A stretch of DNA of 44,932 bases from Citrobacter phage phiNP: sequence record OR565852, one strand, 5' to 3'. The position numbers and the translations under genes were made by a program. Below the pieces are notes generated by a model. It ran no database searches, was not told the origin of the DNA, and was given only the letters and a program-made list of their open reading frames with translations. Numbering within the stretch: position 1 is the stretch's first letter; each line of letters opens with the position of its first letter. Of this stretch, positions 1 to 44,932 are shown in pieces.

Positions 1-25
1 GGTTCAACTCCCGCCAGCTCCACCA
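1..25 (+). repeat. ssrA: attL core; 3' terminal 25 nt of tmRNA gene (ssrA) ending in CCA
   Basis: Exact 25-nt direct repeat of 44908-44932; sequence GGTTCAACTCCCGCCAGCTCCACCA matches my recollection of the E. coli tmRNA 3' end. The gene body would lie upstream of the window. Confidence 0.7.
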
Positions 26-152
26 CTTTAGACAGGACAGTGCAAGGACAGCACCAGTAAAAACAGGAAGTTAGCAGTCCCGGCAGGACACCGACCAGAC
101 GGTAGCGGGACAAAAAAGGATACGTAAAGGAGCCGCGGCTCCAAAACAATCA

Positions 153-180
153 AGCCAGCCTCTCAGGGGCTGGTTTTTTT
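153..180 (+). terminator. Rho-independent terminator-like hairpin with T-run
   Basis: CCAGCC-tctcagg-GGCTGG stem followed by TTTTTTT (174-180); a 14-bp palindrome GGAGCCGCGGCTCC lies just upstream (129-142). Confidence 0.45.
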
Positions 181-230
181 GTGCCATAAATTTGCACAAA
201 AATTCTTACCTGATCGACACAGCTTACAAC

Positions 231-278
231 TTGACACTGTATGTATGACCAGTTAAATATAACTGTATATTCAACCAG
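231..278 (+). promoter_or_regulatory. Putative SOS-regulated promoter with two LexA-box-like sites
   Basis: TTGACA at 231-236; CTGT-N8-CCAG at 237-252 and 263-278, the same variant as the E. coli dinI SOS box as I recall it; SD AAGGAG at 281-286 precedes the ATG at 295. Confidence 0.5.
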
Positions 279-294
279 TAAAGGAGATGCTAAA

Positions 295-540
295 ATGCGT
301 GTCGAAATCAGTATTGCCAAAGAAAAATACGGAAAGTTACCGAAAACCGCGCCTTCCGCACTTCAGGAAGAAATGACAAAGCGCCTGGGTAAACAATACC
401 AGGATATTGAAGTCATCGTAAAACCAGCTGGAAGCGACGGTCTATCGGTCTTCCGTGCAGTGGATAAAGATGAAACCAAGAAGAACGTGGAAAAAATGCT
501 GCAAGAGGTCTGGGAGTCGGCTGATGACTGGTTCTTCTGA
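295..540 (+). CDS. dinI: DinI-family DNA-damage-inducible protein
   Basis: 81-aa product MRVEISIAK...EVWESADDWFF with the characteristic DinI C-terminal WESADDWF motif; the track ORF 241-540 is the same frame with an upstream ATG. Confidence 0.8.
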   Translation: MRVEISIAKEKYGKLPKTAPSALQEEMTKRLGKQYQDIEVIVKPAGSDGLSVFRAVDKDETKKNVEKMLQEVWESADDWFF

Positions 541-642: not shown

Positions 643-822
643 ATGGATAGCAGGAATGCGATAGCAATGATTGAAGCTGACGGGTGGTATCTGGTGAGAG
701 TAAAAGGTAGTCATCACCAGTTTAAGCACCCAACCAAGAAAGGGCTGGTAACGGTGAAACATCCACAGAAAGATATACCGCTACCAACACTCAAAAGCAT
801 CAAGAAACAGGCGGGGCTCTAA
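643..822 (+). CDS. hicA: HicA toxin (mRNA interferase)
   Basis: 59-aa ORF below the track size cut-off: MDSRNAIAMIEADGWYLVRVKGSHHQFKHP...; GSHHxF motif typical of HicA/YcfA; directly upstream of hicB. Confidence 0.75.
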   Translation: MDSRNAIAMIEADGWYLVRVKGSHHQFKHPTKKGLVTVKHPQKDIPLPTLKSIKKQAGL

Positions 823-845: not shown

Positions 846-1256
846 ATGTTATATCCCGTTGCTATTGATAAAGGCGATTCATCCTTCGGCGTTCGCGTAC
901 CTGATATTCCAGGCTGCTTCTCTGGCGGCGACAACTATCAGGATGCGATAGAGAGCGTGCGTGAGGCTATCGACGCACATATCGAATTACTGGTGGAAGA
1001 TGGTGAAGCGGTGCCGGAAGCTACCAGCGTGGAAAACTGGCTCGCAGATCCCGATTATACAGGCGTAGTATGGGCACTGGTGGATGTAGACGTTACCCGG
1101 TTAATGGGGAAAGCAGAAAAAATCAACGTAACGCTTCCCTCTTTGCTGATCCGTCGTATCGATCAATTTGTTGCCGCTCATCCCGAATATGGTAGCCGCT
1201 CAGGCTTCCTGTCACGTGTGGCTGCTGATAAAGTGATCGGACGGGAAAAACGTTAA
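846..1256 (+). CDS. hicB: HicB antitoxin
   Basis: N-terminal HicB-type domain (MLYPVAIDKGDSSFGVRVPDIPGCFSGGD...) and C-terminal ribbon-helix-helix-like segment (KINVTLPSLLIRRIDQFV). Confidence 0.8.
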   Translation: MLYPVAIDKGDSSFGVRVPDIPGCFSGGDNYQDAIESVREAIDAHIELLVEDGEAVPEATSVENWLADPDYTGVVWALVDVDVTRLMGKAEKINVTLPSLLIRRIDQFVAAHPEYGSRSGFLSRVAADKVIGREKR

Positions 1257-19136: not shown

Positions 19137-21116
19137 TTACTGAGGTAGTAACTGTGATAACCGTCGGCGCTTCGGCGCCGCTGGCTCTTCGATGATGACG
19201 CCCGGCAGCCGGTAATCCGGTTTCGGCTGTGGATCCGGCTCTGCGGCAATCAGTCGTTCCGGGTTAGCGGCGATACTGTCGGCCTTCGCATTCAGCTTCA
19301 GCCCCATATGCAGCAAACCGCAGAGCGCGGCATAGCCGTAAACACGGCAGTCCAGCGCCTCGTTAGCCCTGCCTGCCAGTTGCTCCCAGACGCGATAGGT
19401 CTGGCCGCCGGAGTGTTTTACAACAGAGCGTTCGGCCAGTAGCTGCCCGAAATAATGCAAATCCCGGTCAGCCGGAAAATGCATATACGCCGATTTCGAC
19501 TCCCCGGCCTCCGGCGGCTCAATATGCAGTCGGTTGCGGATAGTATCCTTTGCTGAATTGACGCCAATAATGATTGGTCGGAACGTCGCCTTACTGCGCG
19601 ATGAGGGGCGCTTGGTCGGCCAGACGGGTGACCGCTTTCCGCCCCTGGCGGACTCCCCTTTTACCGCCCAGATACGGCGTCCCAGTCGCTCTTTGGCAAA
19701 CTCGTAAACCTTCTGGGTATGGTGGCCTCCGGAATCGTGGCAGGCGGCCATGATGGTGAATCCCCGGCCATCAGCCCGGCGCCATACCTGCTTCAGGTAC
19801 GCGTCCAGGCGCTGCCAGGGCTCTTCGGTTTCCAGGTCACCCTCGATCACGTCATAGGCAATGGACCAGGACTCTTCGTTACGTCCCCATCCGATGACCT
19901 CGATTTCAAAGCGATCGTCCTGGGTATCAATCCCAGCCGTCAGAACCGCCACGCCATCCGGCACCTCGGCGGCGTAAACCTCACAGCGCTCAGCCAGCCG
20001 TTTTTCACTCAGCGCCTTCTCCCCCCTGTCCTCATAGGGCTCCCCGAGGGTGGTGTTAATGAAGGTCTGGCGCTGCAGGGGATCGTCTTTTACCTTCAGC
20101 CACTCCGCGACCAGATATTTCCATGCCGCATTAGGGAACAGGCTGTATCCGGTCCAGATATGGAATCCCGCATGGCCGCTAAATGGCCGGGTCGCGCGCC
20201 ATTCACCATTTTTCACCATCCATGCTTTATCGCTGTGCTGAATCACACAGCCGTTGTGCCGACAGACGTAATAAGCGGATTCAGGAATGCCGTTGCCGTC
20301 CTTATCCTTTTCCCACTTGATACCGTAAGACGTATCCGGGCCGCCCCACTCCAGAACCTGATATTCGCCGCAGTGTGGACAGGGAACAAAATAGCGACGC
20401 TGATCGCTCTCCAGATACGCTTTCTCGATGCGACTGATGCCTTTCACCGTCGGTGTCGAGCCCAGCGCTATTTTTCGGTTCCAGAACGTTTCCGAGCGCT
20501 TGATCCCCAGCGCTATCTGGTCGCCTTCCGCACCAGCGCCACCTGCGGGGTACCCGTCCACCTCATCAAACAGGATGATGCGGCAGGTGATACGACGGAA
20601 ACCACCAGGACTGTTCGCCCCCACCATGGTCAGGTTAGCACCATTAGTGAACGTCTTTTTGAGGATGGTCTGATTACTGTCCTTCGCTTTGGGACTACCG
20701 CAAATGTCAGCCAGAACGGGGGTATCGCGCAGCATCGGCGATATTTCGGTTTTACTGTAATCCTCGGCATCCTCAACACGGGGCTGCACCACCAGGATCG
20801 GTGACGGGTCATGTGAGAGAAAATAGCCCACTACGTGGTCGAGGATCTTGGTATAGCCGACACGGGCCGATTTCATCACACTAATCTGGACAACAGCAGG
20901 ATCCGTAATGGCATCCATGATGCCGTCCTGGTACGCAAAGGAGCGAAATTTACCCGTCTGGGCGCTGGTTTCCTTGGACAGCACCGCATATTTATTGGCC
21001 CATTCGCTCAGCGATAGAGGTTCCGGCGGGCGAACGTCTGCACGGGCCTGGACCAGCGAGGCGCGGAAGCGGCGCCAGGCGTTATTGCTGATCCCCCCCT
21101 CTGCTGTCTGTGTCAC
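19137..21116 (-). CDS. Terminase large subunit, lambda gpA family
   Basis: 659 aa; GpA-type segment VLTAGIDTQDDRFEIEVIGWG. Confidence 0.8.
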   Translation of the reverse strand: MTQTAEGGISNNAWRRFRASLVQARADVRPPEPLSLSEWANKYAVLSKETSAQTGKFRSFAYQDGIMDAITDPAVVQISVMKSARVGYTKILDHVVGYFLSHDPSPILVVQPRVEDAEDYSKTEISPMLRDTPVLADICGSPKAKDSNQTILKKTFTNGANLTMVGANSPGGFRRITCRIILFDEVDGYPAGGAGAEGDQIALGIKRSETFWNRKIALGSTPTVKGISRIEKAYLESDQRRYFVPCPHCGEYQVLEWGGPDTSYGIKWEKDKDGNGIPESAYYVCRHNGCVIQHSDKAWMVKNGEWRATRPFSGHAGFHIWTGYSLFPNAAWKYLVAEWLKVKDDPLQRQTFINTTLGEPYEDRGEKALSEKRLAERCEVYAAEVPDGVAVLTAGIDTQDDRFEIEVIGWGRNEESWSIAYDVIEGDLETEEPWQRLDAYLKQVWRRADGRGFTIMAACHDSGGHHTQKVYEFAKERLGRRIWAVKGESARGGKRSPVWPTKRPSSRSKATFRPIIIGVNSAKDTIRNRLHIEPPEAGESKSAYMHFPADRDLHYFGQLLAERSVVKHSGGQTYRVWEQLAGRANEALDCRVYGYAALCGLLHMGLKLNAKADSIAANPERLIAAEPDPQPKPDYRLPGVIIEEPAAPKRRRLSQLLPQ

Positions 21117-21687
21117 TGCTCAACTCCTCCATAGCCTCATACACCACTTCCTGAAGCGCCTGGACGAATTCAGCATCGCTGACAGTCGGGGCCAGCACAC
21201 GCAGCCGGGGGCCATGTTCCGGGGCGATAGCCACCAGGCGGGTACGCATCCGGGAATATTCTTTCCTGACCTCAGAGATCATTTCTTCGAATGGCAACAG
21301 TGCGCCGGATTTTGTGTCATATTCCAGCTGCGTCAGCAGCGCCAGGTAGTTCTCCTTCATCTGACGGGCTTCATCCAGCGTCATTTCAGCACCACGGGCA
21401 ACCAGGATCCGCTCTGCCACTTTACTGGCCGACTCCGGTCGTTCCGGCGTCGCGGTGTTACCCTGGCTGTTACTCCTGGTGGTGTTACCCTTCCTGTTAC
21501 CCTGGCTGTTACCTTCCGCATTTTTTTTACCCGGGCGACTCACCGTTTTCCGGTAGCGTTCAATGTTCGCGTTGGACGCGTCCACATCGATATCTTCACC
21601 ATCCAGAACCAGCCAGCCCCGGGCTTTCCACTGGGTGACCGTCTTCCGGCTGACGCCGTGCAACCTGGCGAATTCTGACTGGTTCAT
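21082..21687 (-). CDS. Terminase small subunit (HTH N-terminus)
   Basis: 201 aa; N-terminal HTH-like MNQSEFARLHGVSRKTVTQWKARGW; overlaps the large terminase start. Confidence 0.6.
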   Translation of the reverse strand: MNQSEFARLHGVSRKTVTQWKARGWLVLDGEDIDVDASNANIERYRKTVSRPGKKNAEGNSQGNRKGNTTRSNSQGNTATPERPESASKVAERILVARGAEMTLDEARQMKENYLALLTQLEYDTKSGALLPFEEMISEVRKEYSRMRTRLVAIAPEHGPRLRVLAPTVSDAEFVQALQEVVYEAMEELSSDTDSRGGDQQ

Positions 21688-21857
21688 GTGTTACCCCGGC
21701 TGTTACCTGTTACCCAAATTTCAAAAGTTCATAGCTAGCCGAACATCGCGGCGCGCAATGCCCGTGTGATATCAGCCAGTTAGGAAGGACCCATTTTTTT
21801 CTGAGCCGTCCTCCCCGGGGGATATCGTCGATTTTCCCGATTTGAAAAATATGCGGA

Positions 21858-26245: not shown

Positions 26246-27298
26246 TTATTTTTCTGGTAACGCTCTGATTTCTTCAACGGTCTGGTTAAACCGCTCTGTT
26301 TCCAGCTCGACGCCAATAGCCTTACGGCCTAAATCGATCGCCGCTTTTAACGTGGAACCGGAGCCCATGAAGAAATCAGCTACCACATCCCCGGGTCTGC
26401 TGCTCGCGCTGATGATTTGCTTCAGCATGTCAGCAGGCTTTTCGCAGGGATGTTTGCCGGGATAAAACTGGACGGGTTTATGCGTCCATACGTCGGTATA
26501 TGGCACGGCCACCGACACGGCAAAATACCGCCGAAGGGATTTGTACTCCTCCAGCAGTTCGGAATATTTACGGTTCAGTGACTGGTATGTTGCCACCAGT
26601 TGGTGATGAGGCTGCGCCAGTTCGGCACGCTGATGCTTCTCGATAGCGATCCGGGTGAAAAGCTCCTGCAATTTGAGGTAATCCGCTTCACCCGGCAGCT
26701 GCCACTGGCTGGAACCAAACCAGTGCGAAACCATGTTCTTCTTACCAGTGGCCTCGGTGATTTGTTTCGAGGTAACGCCAAGGGATTCCCGGGCATTCTG
26801 AAAATAGGTAATAAGCGGTGTCAGCACATGCTGTTTGAGTTCACCACATTTTGCCGCGTAACCATCGTCTTTGGGCTTGCATGGCCCCTGATAGTGTTCA
26901 GCAAACAGAACACGCTCAGTGGCCGGGAAATACGCGCGCAGACTTTCTTTATTGCAGCCATTCCAGCGACCGCTCGGTTTAGCCCAAATGATGTGGTTCA
27001 GGATGCTGAAGCGGTCGCGCATTAAGATTTCAATATCTGCAGCCAGCCGGTGGCCGCAAAACAGGTAAAGGCTACCGGCGGGTTTCAACACTCGCCAGAA
27101 TTCAGCCAGGCAGCGATCGAGCCAGCGAAGATAGTCTTCATCCCCTTTCCACTGGTTATCCCATCCGTTTGGCTTCACCTTGAAGTAAGGCGGATCGGTA
27201 ACAATCAGGTCGATGGAGTTATCAGGAAGGGTGGCGATGTAATGCAGGCAGTCAGCGTTGATTAACTCAACACTGTTTATTTTTACAGTATTTTTCAT
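26246..27298 (-). CDS. DNA methyltransferase (N4/N6 class, DPPY motif)
   Basis: 350 aa; IDLIVTDPPYF motif IV near the N-terminus and FFMGSGST AdoMet motif near the C-terminus. Confidence 0.75.
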   Translation of the reverse strand: MKNTVKINSVELINADCLHYIATLPDNSIDLIVTDPPYFKVKPNGWDNQWKGDEDYLRWLDRCLAEFWRVLKPAGSLYLFCGHRLAADIEILMRDRFSILNHIIWAKPSGRWNGCNKESLRAYFPATERVLFAEHYQGPCKPKDDGYAAKCGELKQHVLTPLITYFQNARESLGVTSKQITEATGKKNMVSHWFGSSQWQLPGEADYLKLQELFTRIAIEKHQRAELAQPHHQLVATYQSLNRKYSELLEEYKSLRRYFAVSVAVPYTDVWTHKPVQFYPGKHPCEKPADMLKQIISASSRPGDVVADFFMGSGSTLKAAIDLGRKAIGVELETERFNQTVEEIRALPEK

Positions 27299-27837: not shown

Positions 27838-28533
27838 TCACATTTCCAGCGCATTAGCCACTTCCAGCCCTTCGCGCCTGATGAGGATCGTTTGCAGCGC
27901 CTGAGTGTCAAGCTCGACGAATGCCGCTTTAAATCTCGCCCAGTGCGATGCATACACACGTAACCAGGTTGAACGATCCACAGACATCATTCGCGCCAGC
28001 GCCGCACCGGCGTATTCTTTATATGTGTCATTGCTTCTGGCCGCAGCCACCTCCTGCGCTGCCAGCCAGACAAGACCGACCAGTTTTTTCACTACCCGTG
28101 ATTGCAGCTTCTTCTCTACCCTGCAATTCTGAAACTCATTCCATACATGCTGGCACATCAGCGTCTGGTACCTGAAGTTCAGATCGAAACCGTAGCAGTA
28201 ACGGATCCATGCCTGCTGGTAGTCATCCAGTGAATTGATTACCCGGCGCCACGGCGCGTAACTAAATTCCAGATCCTGCATTGGCGGGAACGGTCGCCGC
28301 CGGCTTCTCGTTTCCAGCACATAAACAGGCGTGGTTAATGCCTTCACAAGCGAGTGTCCACAGCCTTCCCCGCCCTCCAGTTCGATAAGAGGCTGCCCGC
28401 AGCGGGGCGTTTTATTTTTGTCTGCCGGTGGATGTTCGCTAAACGCCTGCAGTTGCCCCTTTGTCCCTTCAGATAAATTCGCCAGGGCGCGCTTTACTTC
28501 TATACGGGTATATTCAATGGCCTGTAAGTTCAT
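27838..28533 (-). CDS. Putative Q-like late-gene antiterminator
   Basis: 231 aa immediately upstream of the promoter/terminator region and lysis genes; Cys/His cluster (CGQPLIELEGGEGCGH). Confidence 0.5.
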   Translation of the reverse strand: MNLQAIEYTRIEVKRALANLSEGTKGQLQAFSEHPPADKNKTPRCGQPLIELEGGEGCGHSLVKALTTPVYVLETRSRRRPFPPMQDLEFSYAPWRRVINSLDDYQQAWIRYCYGFDLNFRYQTLMCQHVWNEFQNCRVEKKLQSRVVKKLVGLVWLAAQEVAAARSNDTYKEYAGAALARMMSVDRSTWLRVYASHWARFKAAFVELDTQALQTILIRREGLEVANALEM

Positions 28534-31379: not shown

Positions 31380-32220
31380 CAGCCACGGTGATTATTTCGC
31401 TGGTGGGCATACGCTCAAGCCAGAGCTGATTGATGTTCGCCTTCAGCTTGTTCTGCTGGGCCAACTCCAGAGAATCCGCTCCCTCAACCTGATTGAATAC
31501 CAGGCCAACCTCCAGCGGCCAGATACGCGACTCCACTTCTGGCTGTCCCAAGCCAGCAGGCATAACGTCTTCCACCGGGGCTGGCGGCACCACTTTTTCC
31601 GCGGCAAATTGGGCCAGCGACATAAATGCCCGCCCCTTAGCCTCTAGATCACTGCGATGAATGTAGCTGAAACGCTCGCCCCGCCATGTCTTATCGAATA
31701 CCACTATGGCGCCAGCGAAAAATGCGCTGGTAGGCTGCTGTTTCTCGTCTGCCGGGATAAACCATGCAGGCAGGTCGAAGCCAATGCGGCCACGGATGAA
31801 AACAATATGATCAGCATCTTCAGGCCACCATGTTTCACTAGGTGCCGCTTTGATGAGGAACACATAGCGACCGCCCTTCTCACGCATGGCAGAGGCATAG
31901 CTCATGATATGACTCATGCCGGTGATCGCCTGCTTACCGTCGTATTGCGATCGGCTATAGGGCGGATTGCCGAACGCGGCGCCACCGATGGCGATCAGCA
32001 TTTCCGACCAATCCTGTGTCAGAGCGTTATCTTCGGCGGTGTACCAGACCGGGCATTTGGCGTTACTGTCGTCGGCGAACAAATCCAGCATCAGCGGCCC
32101 AAACATCGCATTGATGCCCCAGAACAACAGTTCCGGCGTGCGCCACTGATCGCCAACTTCTTTTAACTCGTGGACTGGCTTGCTACGTAGTTCAGCCAGC
32201 GCCAGGCAGTATTTATTCAT
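31339..32220 (-). CDS. Phage-type N6-adenine DNA methyltransferase (NPPY) with C-terminal extension
   Basis: 293 aa; WRTPELLF and FGNPPYS motifs of the phage Dam family; ~120-aa C-terminal extension of unknown function. Confidence 0.65.
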   Translation of the reverse strand: MNKYCLALAELRSKPVHELKEVGDQWRTPELLFWGINAMFGPLMLDLFADDSNAKCPVWYTAEDNALTQDWSEMLIAIGGAAFGNPPYSRSQYDGKQAITGMSHIMSYASAMREKGGRYVFLIKAAPSETWWPEDADHIVFIRGRIGFDLPAWFIPADEKQQPTSAFFAGAIVVFDKTWRGERFSYIHRSDLEAKGRAFMSLAQFAAEKVVPPAPVEDVMPAGLGQPEVESRIWPLEVGLVFNQVEGADSLELAQQNKLKANINQLWLERMPTSEIITVAGGLVYSMQGAVNA

Positions 32221-33089
32221 GAGCGAAATCCCGAGTTTTCTGGTAGTGAATAATCCACATCTTTGAAGGTTGCCCGCGCAGCAGGGCTGTGGTTGTTAAC
32301 CCACTCGCCATTTTTGCGCTCAGGGCGACCAGCCTTGTGCCATTTGTTCGCGGCCTGCAGGTAACCAGGGAATTTCGTTGGGTGAAACAGTGTCGTAGGT
32401 CGAAGGTACTCGGACATTTTAAAATCCTGCCCCCATTTCTCGGTCATGTACTCCACAACCAGAGTGAGTTCGTAGATGGTGAACCCCTCCCCCAGCCGGG
32501 CGCGAATATTCTCCAGCGACGTTTTCCCCACCTGATAACGGGATCCTGTTTTTTGGTTCAGAAAAGTCAGAACCTGTTTAGCCTGATCAGTGATCTCCAC
32601 AGCAGGGGCGGGTTGCGACGCAACCGGACAAGAAGTTTTTTTATCTGATGGATCAGTAGTTGATTTTACTGACGGATCCCCGCCAGATTCTGACGGGTGA
32701 AAACCGCCATTTTTATCAGATTTTGACGCCTCAATTTTTGACGGGTCAGATTTTGATGCGTCAGATTTTGACGGGTCAGAATCTGGCAGGTGAGAGAATG
32801 CCGCCGCCTGGAGTTTCCTCACATTAAGTCGATAAACATTGGATGCATTACGGTTACCCTGGCGGCGAGCGGTACGGGTCAACCACCCTTCAGCTTCCAG
32901 CTTTGCAATAGCCGTTCTGACTGTGCTGGACCCCGCCCCAATCTGGCGAGCGATAGTCTCAATGGACGGCCAGGAAACGCCTTCATCGTTACTGAAGTCT
33001 GCCAGGCGTGCCATGATTGCGACACTGGAAATCTTCATGCCAGCCGCCGCACAGCCATCCCAGACGTATGCAGATAATTTAACGCTCAC
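32217..33089 (-). CDS. Replication initiator protein (O-like) containing the origin iterons
   Basis: 290 aa; GTG start; N-terminal HTH-like region; central SDPSKSDASKSDPSKIEASKSD peptide repeats encoded by the iteron array. Confidence 0.6.
   Translation of the reverse strand: MSVKLSAYVWDGCAAAGMKISSVAIMARLADFSNDEGVSWPSIETIARQIGAGSSTVRTAIAKLEAEGWLTRTARRQGNRNASNVYRLNVRKLQAAAFSHLPDSDPSKSDASKSDPSKIEASKSDKNGGFHPSESGGDPSVKSTTDPSDKKTSCPVASQPAPAVEITDQAKQVLTFLNQKTGSRYQVGKTSLENIRARLGEGFTIYELTLVVEYMTEKWGQDFKMSEYLRPTTLFHPTKFPGYLQAANKWHKAGRPERKNGEWVNNHSPAARATFKDVDYSLPENSGFRS
32661..32790. repeat. Iteron array (putative origin of replication)
   Basis: Seven ~15-bp units of consensus TCAGATTTTGACGGG; five are contiguous from 32716 to 32790. 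Confidence 0.6.
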
Positions 33090-33266: not shown

Positions 33267-34001
33267 TTAGCCCCCCATCAATTCGGAGGCGTAGCGCTCG
33301 GCGATCCACTGGACGCCACGAGGTGTTACGCGGGTTTGCGTATAGGCATGACCGAAATCAGACGTGCCGGTTTTGACAGTGAACAGGCCCTCCCGCTGGC
33401 GCAGGGCATGAGGCAGCAAATTGCCGGACTGGCGGAACAAAACCTTGTCACGCACCAGTGCATCTATCATGGCTTTTTCCGGCATGTTGAGGATCTTCGC
33501 CGTCTCACGCAGGCCTTTGGCGCCGCCAGACTCTACGTAGTGGTTTACGAACGCCACCTTTGGCGCGTCCTGCTGAACCTTATGTGACAGCTGCGCATTC
33601 TGCTCTGCCATATCGGCGGCCAGGCGGAGCGCTTCGGGGAGGGTCTGGGGAATTAATGCTGTGCTTTCCAGCTCCTGCCAGCGATCCACAACCGCAGCCG
33701 TAAACTCAGGAGAAAGTCTGGCAACCAGCACCAAAGAATCGCGTTTGTTGAACCGATATTCCTGATAAACGTTGCCGTTATGCTCAAAATCGAACTGCGC
33801 CAACGGCGCGGTTAAAAGACCAGCAGCATTCAGGCGCTCAGCGGAGCGTTTGACGTCACCATGTTTACTCTGCACAAGAGCGGCGATTTCACGGCTGCTC
33901 ATTGTCACTACGCCGCCGAATGCAGGTGAAAAACCAGCAGCCTGTGCGCGATTAATCAATTGCTGTGGCATTTTGCTGACCTCCCCGGGAAATAAAGTCA
34001 C
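33267..34001 (-). CDS. Rha-family regulatory protein / antirepressor with KilAC-like C-terminal domain
   Basis: 244 aa; N-terminal [24 protein letters not shown] (Rha-like) and C-terminal ...[15 protein letters not shown] (KilAC-like). Confidence 0.6.
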
Positions 34002-35057: not shown

Positions 35058-35753
35058 ATGAACATAGGAAACCGCATTAGAGAATTGCGCCTCGCAAGAG
35101 GCATGAAAATTTCTGACCTTGCTGATGCTGTTGGTATTGACGGCGCGAACGTTTCTCGCGTAGAGACCGGTAAGCAAAAGTCATTTACTGAACAATCGCT
35201 TAGCAAATATGCAAATGCGCTCGGCGTTGATGTTGCTGAACTCTTTACACCTTCCATAAATGAAACTACTGTATACAAATCCAGTGAGAATAATCCAGTT
35301 TATGGAGAGGATGACCCGGTGTTTAGAGTCGAAATGCTTGATGTCAGTGCCAGCGCTGGCATGGGTTTTATACAGGGTAGTGATGTCATCGATGTCATCA
35401 GATCGATTGAATACAACAGCGAACGGGCGGTCGCTCTGTTTGGTGGAAGAACGCCAGATACCGTTAAAGTGATCAACGTTCGCGGTGATAGTATGGCTGA
35501 TACTATAGAGCCAGGTGACCTAATCTTTGTTGATGTTTCAATTAATGAATTTGATGGTGATGGCATTTATGTGTTTGGTTTTGACGAGAAAATTTATGTC
35601 AAACGGTTACAGATGATTCCCGATAAAATTCTGGTGATATCTGATAATCCCAAATACAGAGAGTGGTCAGTTGATCAATCTAACGAAGACCGTTTTTATG
35701 TGTTTGGGAAAGTGATGCTTAGCCAATCACAAGCAATGAAAAGACACGGATAA
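35058..35753 (+). CDS. cI: CI-like repressor (HTH_XRE + S24 LexA-like peptidase domain)
   Basis: N-terminal HTH; C-terminal S24 motifs VRGDSMADTIEPGDLIFVD and KIYVKRL; likely start at ATG 35058 within track ORF 34974-35753. Confidence 0.85.
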   Translation: MNIGNRIRELRLARGMKISDLADAVGIDGANVSRVETGKQKSFTEQSLSKYANALGVDVAELFTPSINETTVYKSSENNPVYGEDDPVFRVEMLDVSASAGMGFIQGSDVIDVIRSIEYNSERAVALFGGRTPDTVKVINVRGDSMADTIEPGDLIFVDVSINEFDGDGIYVFGFDEKIYVKRLQMIPDKILVISDNPKYREWSVDQSNEDRFYVFGKVMLSQSQAMKRHG

Positions 35754-42058: not shown

Positions 42059-43846
42059 ATGTCTGAATTATTGGCCGCAATTTGTGGCCATTTCATGGAA
42101 CAAGGTACAAACATGGCAAATCCAATAACCAAACTAAAAAAAATAAACGTTGTAAAATTTCGAGGACTAAAAAATATAAATATAGAATTTGGTTCGCGAC
42201 TAACTGTTATTTGTGGTAAAAACGGCACATCTAAATCGACAATTCTTGGTATTATCGCCCAAATTTTTAGTTTTACAAAAGATCTGTCTAAGAACCCCGA
42301 GGTTGATTTAACACAATATAAGACATTAACTAATGGCACCTTCAAGTCAGCTTTCAGTGAACATTTTAGACTTTCAGAACAATTTGATACTGCAGGTTCA
42401 ATGGAAGTCAGGATTAGTGTTTATGATGGTGCATCTAACAAACATCTTGAAAAGCTAACATTGGGTCTATACAGCTCCAGTGACAGGGATAAATCAAGGC
42501 CAATAGTCAGGGGCAATGATTCCATACCGGGGAAAAACCAAAGTAGAAACGTCACTCATCCAGTTATTTTTCTAAGCTTAGCAAGACTTCTCCCTATTAC
42601 TCTACGGACTGATTACTCAACAAGGGATGTTCAGTATATCAATGAAAACGCAGATGATATAAGAATAATGAGCAATCAACTCTTACTTAAGAATAATGGG
42701 TGCTCAGTAACAGCCACGAAAGGGACGATCGATTCAATGGTCGTACACGGCGATAATTACGACCATCAATCAGTCTCTGTTGGTGAGGATAATGTTGGAC
42801 AATTAATTCAAGCAATATTTTCCTTTAAAAGGCTAAAAGAACTTTATGACGATTATCATGGAGGTATTTTATTAATTGATGAAGCGGACGCAGGTCTTTT
42901 CCCTGCTGCTCAGTTAGAATTAATTGACATTCTAGCTAAAGCAGCTAAAAAATATGACTTGCAAATAATCATGACTTCTCACTCACCATTAATAATAGAA
43001 GATATTTTCAATCGTTCCAAACAAGATGCCAACGGATTTAAAACAATATATCTGACAGATACTTATGGTGATATTAAAACAAAAGACAATCTATCATGGG
43101 CCGATATCAATGCTGATTTGCATGTTGAAACTGTAAAAATAAATGATGAGATTAGCCTTCCAAAAGCCAACGTATATTTTGAAGATAAAGAAGGCTTCGA
43201 TTTTTTCAAACAATTGATAATTGATAGAAGAATAAACAGAATATTGAATCCATTAGGAAACATAAATATTAGTTGTACTGCTATCCTAGATTTAATGGCT
43301 AGAAAAGTCCCTGAGTTTACTAACAAAAGCCTAGTTGTCTTAGACGGTGATGTTGCTCTCGATAACAGTGACAATGCTAAAAAAGCGAAAAAAGAGAGAA
43401 GCTTATGCTTGCTTCCAGGCATTCTTCCCCCAGATCAAATGATTTTTGAATTCTTATATAACTTACCTCCAGACGATATATATTGGAACAATAAAAATAG
43501 ATTTACAAAAGCAGTATTTATGAAAATAACAAAAGACATAATTACAACATTAAAAATAAGTAACTATCCTATTGATTTACTAAATTCTATAGAGAATTAT
43601 AAAAAATCAAACAAAAACCATGGCGGAGTGGTTAGAAAACTATTTAAAGATTTTGTCCATACGCCTGAGTTCCTAGCACAAGTAAAAGGGCGAGTTAAAG
43701 ATAATCCTTATCGATATTGGGTCGAGAAACACCCCGTAGAATCCGATAATTTCAAGCATGAATTAATCAAAAACCTTAAAATTATTATGACAAATGGACA
43801 TGGCGTTGACTCTGCTACCATCACTTCGTATCTGTCTGGCAACTAA
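42059..43846 (+). CDS. OLD-family-like ATP-dependent nuclease (ABC ATPase + putative TOPRIM)
   Basis: 595 aa, AT-rich; Walker A GKNGTSKST, Walker B ILLIDEADAG, H-loop MTSHSP; C-terminal candidate TOPRIM Glu (YFEDKEG) and DxD (VVLDGDVALD). Confidence 0.65.
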   Translation: MSELLAAICGHFMEQGTNMANPITKLKKINVVKFRGLKNINIEFGSRLTVICGKNGTSKSTILGIIAQIFSFTKDLSKNPEVDLTQYKTLTNGTFKSAFSEHFRLSEQFDTAGSMEVRISVYDGASNKHLEKLTLGLYSSSDRDKSRPIVRGNDSIPGKNQSRNVTHPVIFLSLARLLPITLRTDYSTRDVQYINENADDIRIMSNQLLLKNNGCSVTATKGTIDSMVVHGDNYDHQSVSVGEDNVGQLIQAIFSFKRLKELYDDYHGGILLIDEADAGLFPAAQLELIDILAKAAKKYDLQIIMTSHSPLIIEDIFNRSKQDANGFKTIYLTDTYGDIKTKDNLSWADINADLHVETVKINDEISLPKANVYFEDKEGFDFFKQLIIDRRINRILNPLGNINISCTAILDLMARKVPEFTNKSLVVLDGDVALDNSDNAKKAKKERSLCLLPGILPPDQMIFEFLYNLPPDDIYWNNKNRFTKAVFMKITKDIITTLKISNYPIDLLNSIENYKKSNKNHGGVVRKLFKDFVHTPEFLAQVKGRVKDNPYRYWVEKHPVESDNFKHELIKNLKIIMTNGHGVDSATITSYLSGN

Positions 43847-43925: not shown

Positions 43926-44807
43926 ATGCGTTTTAACACCCCACTTCGTTATCCTGGCGGCAAAGGCAAGCTTTCTAATTTCATGCTTCGGATTATTGAA
44001 GATAATAAGCTTTCGCCTATACATTATGCAGAGCCATATGCTGGGGGTGCTGGTTTAGCGCTGAAGCTGTTACACTTAAATGTAGCTGAAAAAATCATTC
44101 TTAATGATATTAATATCTCAGTTTATGCTTTTTGGCACAGTGTATTAAATAATGCAGATCATTTATGTGCTTTAATTGAGGATACTGAAGTCACAATGGA
44201 TGAGTGGTTCAAACAGAAAGAAATAATTAATCATCCAAGAGACCATGATATGCTAACAATTGGTTTTTCTACCTTTTTTCTTAATAGAACAAATCGTTCT
44301 GGAATATTAAAAGGCGGTGTAATTGGTGGTAAAAATCAAGAAGGGCAATGGAAACTTGATGCTCGTTATAACAAGAGCGATTTAATTTCTCGGATTCAGA
44401 AAATATCAAAAAACCGTGAAAGAATAGATTTGTATAACATGGATGCAATTGATTTCATAAAAAAAATAGTTGTTCAATTGCCTAAAAAATCATTAACATA
44501 TTTAGATCCGCCATATTATATAAAAGGTAAGGGATTATATATCAATCATTATGAACATAGTGACCATGTTAATGTTGCAAAAGTAGTGCAGCATGATATT
44601 AAAACACCGTGGATTGTTTCTTACGATAACACTCCTGAGATCCAAGGTATGTATAAGGCATCATCATTAGTGTATGGAATAAACTACAGTGCTCAAGATC
44701 GATATAAGGGCTCAGAAGTGATGTTCTTCAGTAAACGATTGAAAGTCTTTAAAACCGATGATCCAACTAAGGTAAAAGCACCTACCAATAAAAATGCTAT
44801 GAGCTAG
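43926..44807 (+). CDS. Dam-like (D12 class) N6-adenine DNA methyltransferase
   Basis: 293 aa, AT-rich; N-terminal YPGGKGKL, AEPYAGGAG AdoMet motif, FFLNRTNRSG, DPPYY catalytic motif. Confidence 0.75.
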   Translation: MRFNTPLRYPGGKGKLSNFMLRIIEDNKLSPIHYAEPYAGGAGLALKLLHLNVAEKIILNDINISVYAFWHSVLNNADHLCALIEDTEVTMDEWFKQKEIINHPRDHDMLTIGFSTFFLNRTNRSGILKGGVIGGKNQEGQWKLDARYNKSDLISRIQKISKNRERIDLYNMDAIDFIKKIVVQLPKKSLTYLDPPYYIKGKGLYINHYEHSDHVNVAKVVQHDIKTPWIVSYDNTPEIQGMYKASSLVYGINYSAQDRYKGSEVMFFSKRLKVFKTDDPTKVKAPTNKNAMS

Positions 44808-44896: not shown

Positions 44897-44932
44897 TTTC
44901 GGACGCTGGTTCAACTCCCGCCAGCTCCACCA
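44897..44932 (+). repeat. attR; partial copy of the ssrA 3' end
   Basis: 36 nt TTTCGGACGCTGGTTCAACTCCCGCCAGCTCCACCA; final 25 nt are identical to 1-25; one mismatch to the remembered ssrA sequence; upstream flank is phage coding DNA. Confidence 0.7.

Follow-up and report, generated by a model that had tools for sequence, protein, structure and literature searches.

A dinI-like gene with two predicted LexA operators at the attL end of Citrobacter phage phiNP

LexA-controlled dinI genes carried by prophages are already well documented. In Gifsy-1, -2 and -3 a terminator-like palindrome and then a LexA box precede dinI, which stands at the head of an operon with an antirepressor gene, and the DinI protein of Gifsy-2 accumulates after mitomycin C treatment (PMC3121763); the LexA box of these genes lies 19 bp from the ATG, and nalidixic acid induces them 23-, 14- and 4.6-fold, respectively (PMC8072944). 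The chromosomal dinI of Salmonella has two boxes, whose distances from the ATG are 19 and 42 bp (PMC8072944), and a LexA chromatin immunoprecipitation (ChIP) signal is found on Klebsiella dinI (PMC10907235). In Serratia OS31 and Klebsiella phiKO2 a LexA box precedes a DinI-like gene that diverges from the tail-fiber genes (PMC7556043). Here we describe the dinI-like gene at the attL end of Citrobacter phage phiNP, taking as our window the whole 44,932-nucleotide (nt) stretch of sequence record OR565852. The gene, open reading frame (ORF) 1 of the phage, is an ordinary further case of this kind. It had been annotated as DinI-like before this analysis, and the same protein is named 'Prophage damage-inducible protein' in both C. 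rodentium and phage phiNP.

The phiNP locus resembles those of the Gifsy prophages in having a stand-alone DinI gene, a terminator-like element and a LexA box 14-19 nt before the ATG that overlaps a sigma-70 promoter, which in phiNP is a predicted one; the Gifsy-1 and phiNP proteins share 43% amino-acid identity. It differs from them in having two LexA boxes rather than one, and in its genetic setting: in Gifsy, where the repressors are not cleaved, dinI leads an operon that also contains an antirepressor gene (gfoA/gftA) and irsA, whereas phiNP has hicAB downstream and a cleavable CI of the S24 type. E. coli DinI (1GHH, 7YWA), which also has 81 residues, shares with the phiNP protein its fold, 41% identity and all eight RecA-contact residues, and the E. 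coli gene has a LexA box of the same CTGT-N8-CCAG type (ACCTGTATAAATAACCAGTA). The presence of two boxes is a likeness to Salmonella dinI, those of phiNP ending 14 and 40 nt before the ATG. In contrast to the E. coli and Salmonella genes, the phiNP gene is phage-borne at an att edge and both of its boxes are strong, while its product has a two-residue insertion after strand 1 (KY, residues 11-12) and ends in WFF without the VSE tail.

A further parallel is the tum gene of phage 186 (NC_001317), where a LexA box covers the -10 element of the LexA-repressed p95 promoter and nested DinI-like products are annotated as modulating prophage SOS induction. The C-terminal half of Tum is DinI-like, with 32% identity to phiNP DinI over 73 residues; the BLASTP match stops at VWE (Tum residue 141 of 146) and leaves the SADDWF end of Tum outside it. 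Unlike phiNP DinI, Tum has 146 residues with an N-terminal antirepressor half, and the 186 CI is not cleaved by RecA. In the Stx and other lambdoid phages, phiKO2 and OS31, too, a DinI-like gene lies at the end of the prophage map beside tail-fiber genes, from which it diverges, and the Stx phage homologues are 54-57% identical to phiNP DinI. These genes are not known to differ in function from that of phiNP. The virion of phiNP is of another type, its genes specifying a lambda-like head and a Mu-like myovirus tail.

Predicted promoter and operators of dinI

Positions 231-300 of the window read, in order, TTGACA, CTGTATGTATGACCAG, TT, AAATAT, AA, CTGTATATTCAACCAG, TA, AAGGAG, ATGCTAAA and ATG (Table 1). 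The distal LexA box (box 1) overlaps the last two bases of the -35 hexamer and fills the promoter spacer, and the proximal one (box 2) covers the predicted transcription start at about position 267. The boxes were scored with a symmetric 20-mer LexA matrix made from 27 E. coli operators; that of E. coli dinI, whose sequence was confirmed in K-12, was kept out of the training set. In leave-one-out scoring the training sites had a median of 18.2 bits and a minimum of 7.9 bits, and the held-out E. coli dinI box scored 22.3 bits. Dinucleotide shuffling of the whole window, done 100 times, gave no site above 17.1 bits, a maximum that both dinI boxes exceed. Scores above 14 bits occur at only four positions in the window, and the highest of all belongs to box 2. 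The CTGT-N8-CCAG pattern itself is found six times against 1.1 expected, a count that none of 100 shuffles reached.

The promoter-operator block was compared across 160 loci encoding relatives, taken in equal parts from genomes (80) and viral contigs (80); 127 of the 160 have at least 150 nt of upstream sequence. Within 150 nt upstream of the gene, 117 of these 127 loci have a LexA box of at least 14 bits, and 113 one of at least 18 bits; elsewhere in the same loci the background density of boxes of at least 14 bits is 0.024 per kb. Two or more boxes of at least 12 bits each are found in 53 of the 127. The boxes of the 117 box-bearing loci mostly end 14-22 nt before the ATG, most of these loci sharing the position of box 2 (14-19 nt before the ATG), and close relatives have a counterpart of box 1 at about 40 nt from it. 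All two-box relatives contain TTGACACTGT, in which TTGACA abuts box 1, several of them with unrelated upstream flanks. The whole block of TTGACA, box 1, AT-rich -10 element, box 2 and Shine-Dalgarno sequence is kept, among others, in Erwinia and Mixta, in two IMG/VR contigs (75-77% identity) and in more distant loci such as L008, L009 and L013. Since the block is conserved where the sequence upstream of TTGACA is unrelated, the promoter-operator cassette travels with the gene. Exceptions are several Yersinia loci in which no start codon precedes the DinI match; these may encode longer, possibly Tum-like proteins. A homologue is encoded by 131 deposited phage genomes, in many of them at the very end of the record.

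The operator scores, together with the conservation of the operators across relatives, strongly indicate that dinI is under LexA control, in agreement with the original prediction, and on this sequence evidence we consider such control very likely. By analogy with its homologues the gene would also be SOS inducible. The prediction had further placed a pair of CTGT-N8-CCAG elements over a TTGACA promoter just upstream of dinI. The positions of these elements are exact and box 1 does overlap the -35 hexamer; the downstream half of the promoter holds up less well, with a weak -10 element. We regard AAATAT as the probable -10 on the basis of its sequence, in which the key bases, A at position 2 and T at position 6, are retained, and relatives have an AT-rich element at the same place (TAAAAT, TAAATT, AAACAT).

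The claim that dinI lies at the attL edge is borne out by the two ends of the window, which consist of an exact 25-bp direct repeat, GGTTCAACTCCCGCCAGCTCCACCA. The left copy is the 3' end of ssrA, the gene for transfer-messenger RNA (tmRNA); the genome paper gives the same 25-bp ssrA sequence as the phiNP att site (PMC6456863). Genomes with the prophage (L161, L163) have an intact tmRNA gene upstream, which ends 270 nt before the dinI ATG. Alignment shows that the terminator between ssrA and the dinI promoter is kept in ssrA-integrated relatives, and from its sequence this element is predicted to insulate the promoter from ssrA read-through.

Taken together, these data favor an autonomously transcribed, LexA-repressed dinI carried as attL-end cargo of phiNP, a reading to which we assign a probability of roughly 0.8. 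In an undamaged lysogen two LexA dimers would occupy the promoter, one in the spacer between -35 and -10 and one over the transcription start, with the upstream terminator stopping read-through from ssrA. Upon DNA damage RecA would become active and LexA would cleave itself, so that the promoter opens and the 81-residue DinI accumulates. Two points weigh against this reading. The dinI promoter, with its poor -10, was not called by a consensus promoter scan; the same scan was also silent over the cI-cro region and is too strict to serve as negative evidence. In addition, we found no experiment on the phiNP dinI locus in the literature searched, and the phiNP genome paper (PMC6456863) makes no mention of LexA or SOS.

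Table 1. Positions of the dinI region, the attachment sites and the other LexA-related features in the phiNP window.
Feature	Positions	Strand	Description
attL core	1-25	+	Last 25 nt of the ssrA (tmRNA) gene; direct repeat; Rfam RF00023 positions 350-374
Intrinsic terminator	152-176 or 152-183	+	Phage-supplied; 11-bp stem and T-run (terminator scan)
-35 hexamer	231-236	+	TTGACA; perfect consensus
LexA box 1 (distal)	235-254		CACTGTATGTATGACCAGTT; core CTGTATGTATGACCAG at 237-252; 19.7 bits
Candidate -10 element	255-260	+	AAATAT; 18-nt spacer; 3/6 match
LexA box 2 (proximal)	261-280		AACTGTATATTCAACCAGTA; core CTGTATATTCAACCAG at 263-278; 23.6 bits
Shine-Dalgarno sequence	281-286	+	AAGGAG; 8 nt 5' of the ATG
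dinI-like gene (phiNP ORF1)	295-540	+	81 residues and stop codon
hicA	643-822	+	Pfam HicA_toxin
hicB	846-1256	+	Pfam HicB_lk_antitox
LexA box in methylase gene	27271-27290		22.2 bits; codons 3-9 of an N6/N4 DNA methylase gene (26246-27298, minus)
CI repressor gene	35058-35753	+	HTH_3 and Peptidase_S24 (Pfam)
LexA box in cI	35267-35286		TACTGTATACAAATCCAGTG; 21.8 bits; in the linker between the helix-turn-helix (HTH) and S24 domains
attR	44908-44932		Second copy of the attL core

DinI, the RecA filament and the CI repressor

The dinI product has been annotated in two lengths: the ORF1 protein of the phiNP GenBank record (WOZ57162.1, P0061) has 99 residues and starts at ATG 241, and the C. rodentium genome annotation uses the 81-residue form from ATG 295. 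We assign the shorter form because AAGGAG lies eight bases 5' of ATG 295 and because relatives share this start, 55 of 55 in the database beginning at MRVEISIAK (lengths 61-122 residues, mostly 77-82). The 99-residue form was rejected: its start codon falls inside LexA box 1 and has no Shine-Dalgarno sequence, and homologues start at MRVEISIAK.

The assignment of this ORF to the DinI family was upheld at the levels of sequence and predicted structure. It matches the Pfam DinI profile PF06183 over all 63 positions (1-63) with 72.7 bits against a cut-off of 24.2 (E=3.2e-20), and phmmer aligns it end to end, over residues 1-80, with the E. coli DinI structures 1GHH and 7YWA (E=8e-11). An AlphaFold2 model with a predicted local distance difference test (pLDDT) score of 84 has a beta-alpha-beta-beta-alpha topology (strands at residues 2-8, 39-45 and 49-53, helices at 19-34 and 58-78). 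Foldseek superimposes this model on 1GHH with a template-modeling (TM) score of 0.82 (root-mean-square deviation 2.2 Å) and on the RecA-bound 7YWA with TM scores of 0.81-0.84; no other fold in the Protein Data Bank was found with E<0.001. The cryo-electron microscopy structure of RecA-DinI identified the residues by which E. coli DinI stabilizes the filament, a pocket of L13, L21, W71, W77 and F78 and an acidic patch of E24, E69 and D76 (PMC9926225). In a HMMER alignment all eight have identical counterparts in phiNP DinI (L15, L23, W73, W79, F80, E26, E71 and D78), and L23, E26, W73, D78, W79 and F80 are invariant across an alignment of 19 sequences. Given the Pfam match, the fold and the eight RecA-contact residues, we predict with high confidence, by analogy with the E. 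coli protein, that phiNP ORF1 is a functional DinI-type binder of RecA filaments.

The phiNP repressor had been said to carry an S24 autocleavage domain, and this is intact: in addition to the Peptidase_S24 match, CI has an Ala-Gly cleavage site in SASAG|MG, the serine in GDSM and the lysine in VKRL. An exact protein look-up found CI, like DinI, in both C. rodentium and phage phiNP; the CI entry of the phiNP GenBank record is shorter, with 216 residues against 231. The phage replicates and excises after mitomycin C or UV treatment (bioRxiv 10.1101/2025.01.01.630987). On these grounds a loop in which an SOS-induced DinI damps CI cleavage is plausible, as is structural competition between DinI and CI for RecA. 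Like its E. coli counterpart, phiNP DinI would use a hydrophobic pocket and an acidic patch to bind the groove of the filament of RecA on single-stranded DNA, and there would both stabilize the filament and compete with other groove binders. Slow substrates such as UmuD, and probably the S24-type phiNP CI, would be cleaved more slowly while LexA cleavage goes on. The net result would be a modest delay of induction or a raised threshold, with DinI non-essential for induction. The idea of damping is not new, since the GenBank record of phage 186 already describes LexA-controlled, DinI-like Tum products that modulate SOS induction.

We infer both an effect of DinI on CI cleavage and its sign. That DinI damps induction is a tentative choice, with odds a little short of even; that it sustains activated RecA (RecA*), and that it leaves induction unaffected, each seem to us rather unlikely. 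The action of DinI depends on its concentration: when stoichiometric with RecA it stabilizes filaments, and it inhibits only at high concentration (PMC6590174), so that any feedback might be of either sign. Non-polar deletions of dinI in Gifsy-1 and Gifsy-3 changed neither the level nor the rate of induction (PMC3121763); these deletions are only an indirect test of competition with CI, because the Gifsy prophages use antirepressors and their repressors are not cleaved. Homologues of dinI also occur in phages of both repressor types, cleavable and antirepressor-controlled, which suggests that dinI was not selected for CI cleavage in particular and acts more generally on RecA or the host SOS response. 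All three points caution against taking the damping loop for granted. The literature searched yielded no experiment that asks how DinI affects the cleavage of a CI of the lambda type, nor one in which dinI was deleted from a phage with a cleavable CI.

The concentration dependence of DinI also bears on a feedback of the opposite sign, in which the level of DinI reached from a single-copy prophage gene would mainly stabilize RecA*, prolong the cleavage of LexA and CI and aid commitment to lysis. DinI stoichiometric with RecA is indeed a positive modulator that stabilizes filaments (PMC6590174, PMC9926225), and such a role would also suit antirepressor-controlled prophages such as Gifsy and 186, where only sustained LexA cleavage counts. 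We nevertheless consider it unlikely: DinI sits on groove elements that lambda CI needs, so that stabilization and exclusion of the substrate are coupled, and the Gifsy dinI deletions did not lower induction.

The antirepressors of these same phages raise the question of whether phiNP DinI belongs to a module of the Tum or Gifsy type, with the DinI-like protein fused to, or working with, an SOS-induced antirepressor. There is precedent in phage 186, where Tum, an antirepressor under LexA control, has the DinI-like part as its C-terminal half, and in Gifsy, where a LexA-controlled operon begins with dinI and includes the antirepressor. Set against this precedent, phiNP DinI is a stand-alone protein of 81 residues with no N-terminal extension; there is no small ORF in 540-643, and the next genes are hicA and hicB, which have a promoter-like site of their own. 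In addition, the S24 cleavage apparatus of CI is complete, so that no antirepressor is needed, and the only Ant/KilAC protein (33267-34001, minus), which is encoded in the early region, has no LexA box of at least 14 bits nearby. This makes such a module scarcely credible, and a Tum-like fusion or an antirepressor operon was rejected on gene anatomy.

Cargo and neighboring genes

In its att-edge position adjoining tail-fiber genes, with an upstream terminator and promoter elements, dinI has some marks of a moron, an autonomous cargo transcription unit of a prophage; the scans turned up no intrinsic terminator downstream of it. The gene might be a host-directed accessory. As such, an extra DinI would limit UmuD cleavage and mutagenesis or tune the SOS response of the lysogen, to the lysogen's advantage under sub-lethal damage, with no part in the choice between lysis and lysogeny. 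Its own promoter and terminator, its place at the prophage end beside cargo (hicAB, an acetyltransferase) and its listing in the phiNP paper as predicted 'fitness' cargo (PMC6456863) agree with this, as does the lack of an induction phenotype in the Gifsy deletions, and a prophage DinI-like gene is among the groups linked to the evolution of quinolone resistance in E. coli (PMC10575684). Conversely, hosts already have a chromosomal dinI, and none of the prophage copies is known to confer a phenotype. A purely host-directed role is thus possible, though somewhat unlikely in our estimate.

The absence of an intrinsic or structured terminator between dinI and hicA, judged by a terminator scan and by the folding of 520-650 (z = -0.26), means that SOS read-through into hicAB is possible. 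The promoter might then serve mainly for such read-through, or for a regulatory RNA from the dinI 3' end comparable to DinR of Klebsiella (PMC10907235), with DinI itself secondary. The linkage of dinI to hicAB is kept in seven relatives (L001, L002, L005, L006, L021, L081 and L082), which fits read-through; but L003, L004 and most other loci have dinI behind the same promoter without hicAB. A promoter scan also found a promoter-like site of hicAB's own between dinI and hicA (TTGACC-17-TACTAT, 582-610), and the C-rich, G-poor segment 541-600 could act as a Rho-dependent stop. A small RNA (sRNA) of the DinR type requires a Rho-independent terminator, of which there is none here, and an Rfam search of 1-900 gave nothing significant beyond the ssrA 3' end. 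A promoter devoted to these ends is accordingly improbable; a DinR-like 3' sRNA or a known RNA family was rejected, there being neither a terminator nor significant structure in 520-650 and only the ssrA end in Rfam.

Direct repeats ACTATAAC(T/C)CCA occupy 555-566 and 606-617 of the C-rich, G-poor spacer between dinI and hicA, which also has an inverted repeat (598-618). These could be a HicB operator.

The cargo near dinI at this end of the prophage includes hicAB and an acetyltransferase. At the attR side, between int and attR, there is a two-gene cargo (42059-43846 and 43926-44807). Its first gene encodes a 595-residue AAA_15/AAA_21 ATPase with weaker matches to the PtuA, AriA and GajA models, and its second a D12 adenine methyltransferase, for which the matching PADLOC model is PD-Lambda-5_B (E=2.8e-123). 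From these matches the pair is probably an anti-phage defense system of the PD-lambda-5 type.

DNA similarity searches of deposited phages returned short matches only and no close relative of the dinI region; the head genes, in the same kind of search, have 75% DNA identity to those of Serratia phage BZS1. Two sets of repeats were seen elsewhere in the window. Four tandem 15-bp repeats (TCAGATTTTGACGGG-like) at 32716-32795, inside the minus-strand gene 32217-33089, look like origin iterons within a replication-initiator gene. The motif TGTTACCC(T/C)GGCTGTTAC occurs four times, at 21456-21512 and 21689-21706, around the start of a small-terminase-like gene (21082-21687, minus), and may be a packaging-site or terminase-binding repeat.

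LexA boxes within cI and the methylase gene

The other two strong LexA boxes of the window are unusually placed, inside coding sequences (Table 1). Each of 80 CI homologues from IMG/VR (68-97% identity) has the cI-internal box at the same offset, and Cronobacter phage ENT47670 (50% identity) has it too; it is missing from cI genes of the HK022 type, whose similarity is confined to the C-terminal domain. The residues encoded at the box vary (ETTVYKSS, SNTVYEYS, QSTVCINS, EPTVYLNS, DTVDTYSV), with an amino-acid entropy of about 2 bits, while the nucleotides of the box have an entropy of 0.34 bits and those of its flanks 0.91 bits. The conservation of the box where the encoded residues vary points to selection on the DNA itself, and suggests a real LexA operator under such selection. 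A limited literature search found no paper describing a LexA box inside cI.

It is possible that this box controls an internal SOS transcript. Candidate signals are TTTACA at 35244-35249, 17 nt before TACTGT, and GGAGAGG at 35304-35310, followed after 8 nt by an in-frame GTG at 35319, codon 88 of cI. Of 53 unique homologues, 46 have GTG at this codon, compared with 21% GTG among all valine codons; Val91 and Val141 show a similar GTG bias, and the bias at Val88 is not decisive. The plus-strand TTTACA falls in conserved Leu-Phe-Thr codons and is inseparable from protein constraint, and the minus strand at the box has no conserved -35.

The methylase gene that contains the other box immediately follows the gene for the Q antiterminator (27838-28533). 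Its box recurs in each of 80 close homologues (identity of at least 81%), where the peptide MKNTVKINS is conserved too; the evidence here is weaker than for cI because the encoded protein is also conserved. One could combine these observations into a LexA circuit acting at several points, in which operators at the dinI promoter, in cI and in the methylase gene, competition between DinI and CI for the RecA* groove, and an SOS transcript from within cI, for example one for a CI without its DNA-binding domain started from GTG codon 88, would jointly set the induction threshold. We regard the full combination as doubtful and a long way from probable. If true, it would set the threshold in a way undescribed for lambda-type switches.

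For dinI itself the value of these results is small: they add a regulatory annotation, two LexA operators and a corrected start, to a phage of the C. rodentium mouse-infection model. The only test of a dinI deletion that we found in the literature concerns Gifsy prophages of the antirepressor type; phiNP, which also lysogenizes E. coli K-12, is a convenient system in which to study the role of a prophage DinI where the repressor is cleaved with the help of RecA*. The operator embedded in cI could matter more than dinI and is worth a separate look, for, if it is real, this family of CI switches would take direct input from LexA in addition to RecA-stimulated cleavage.

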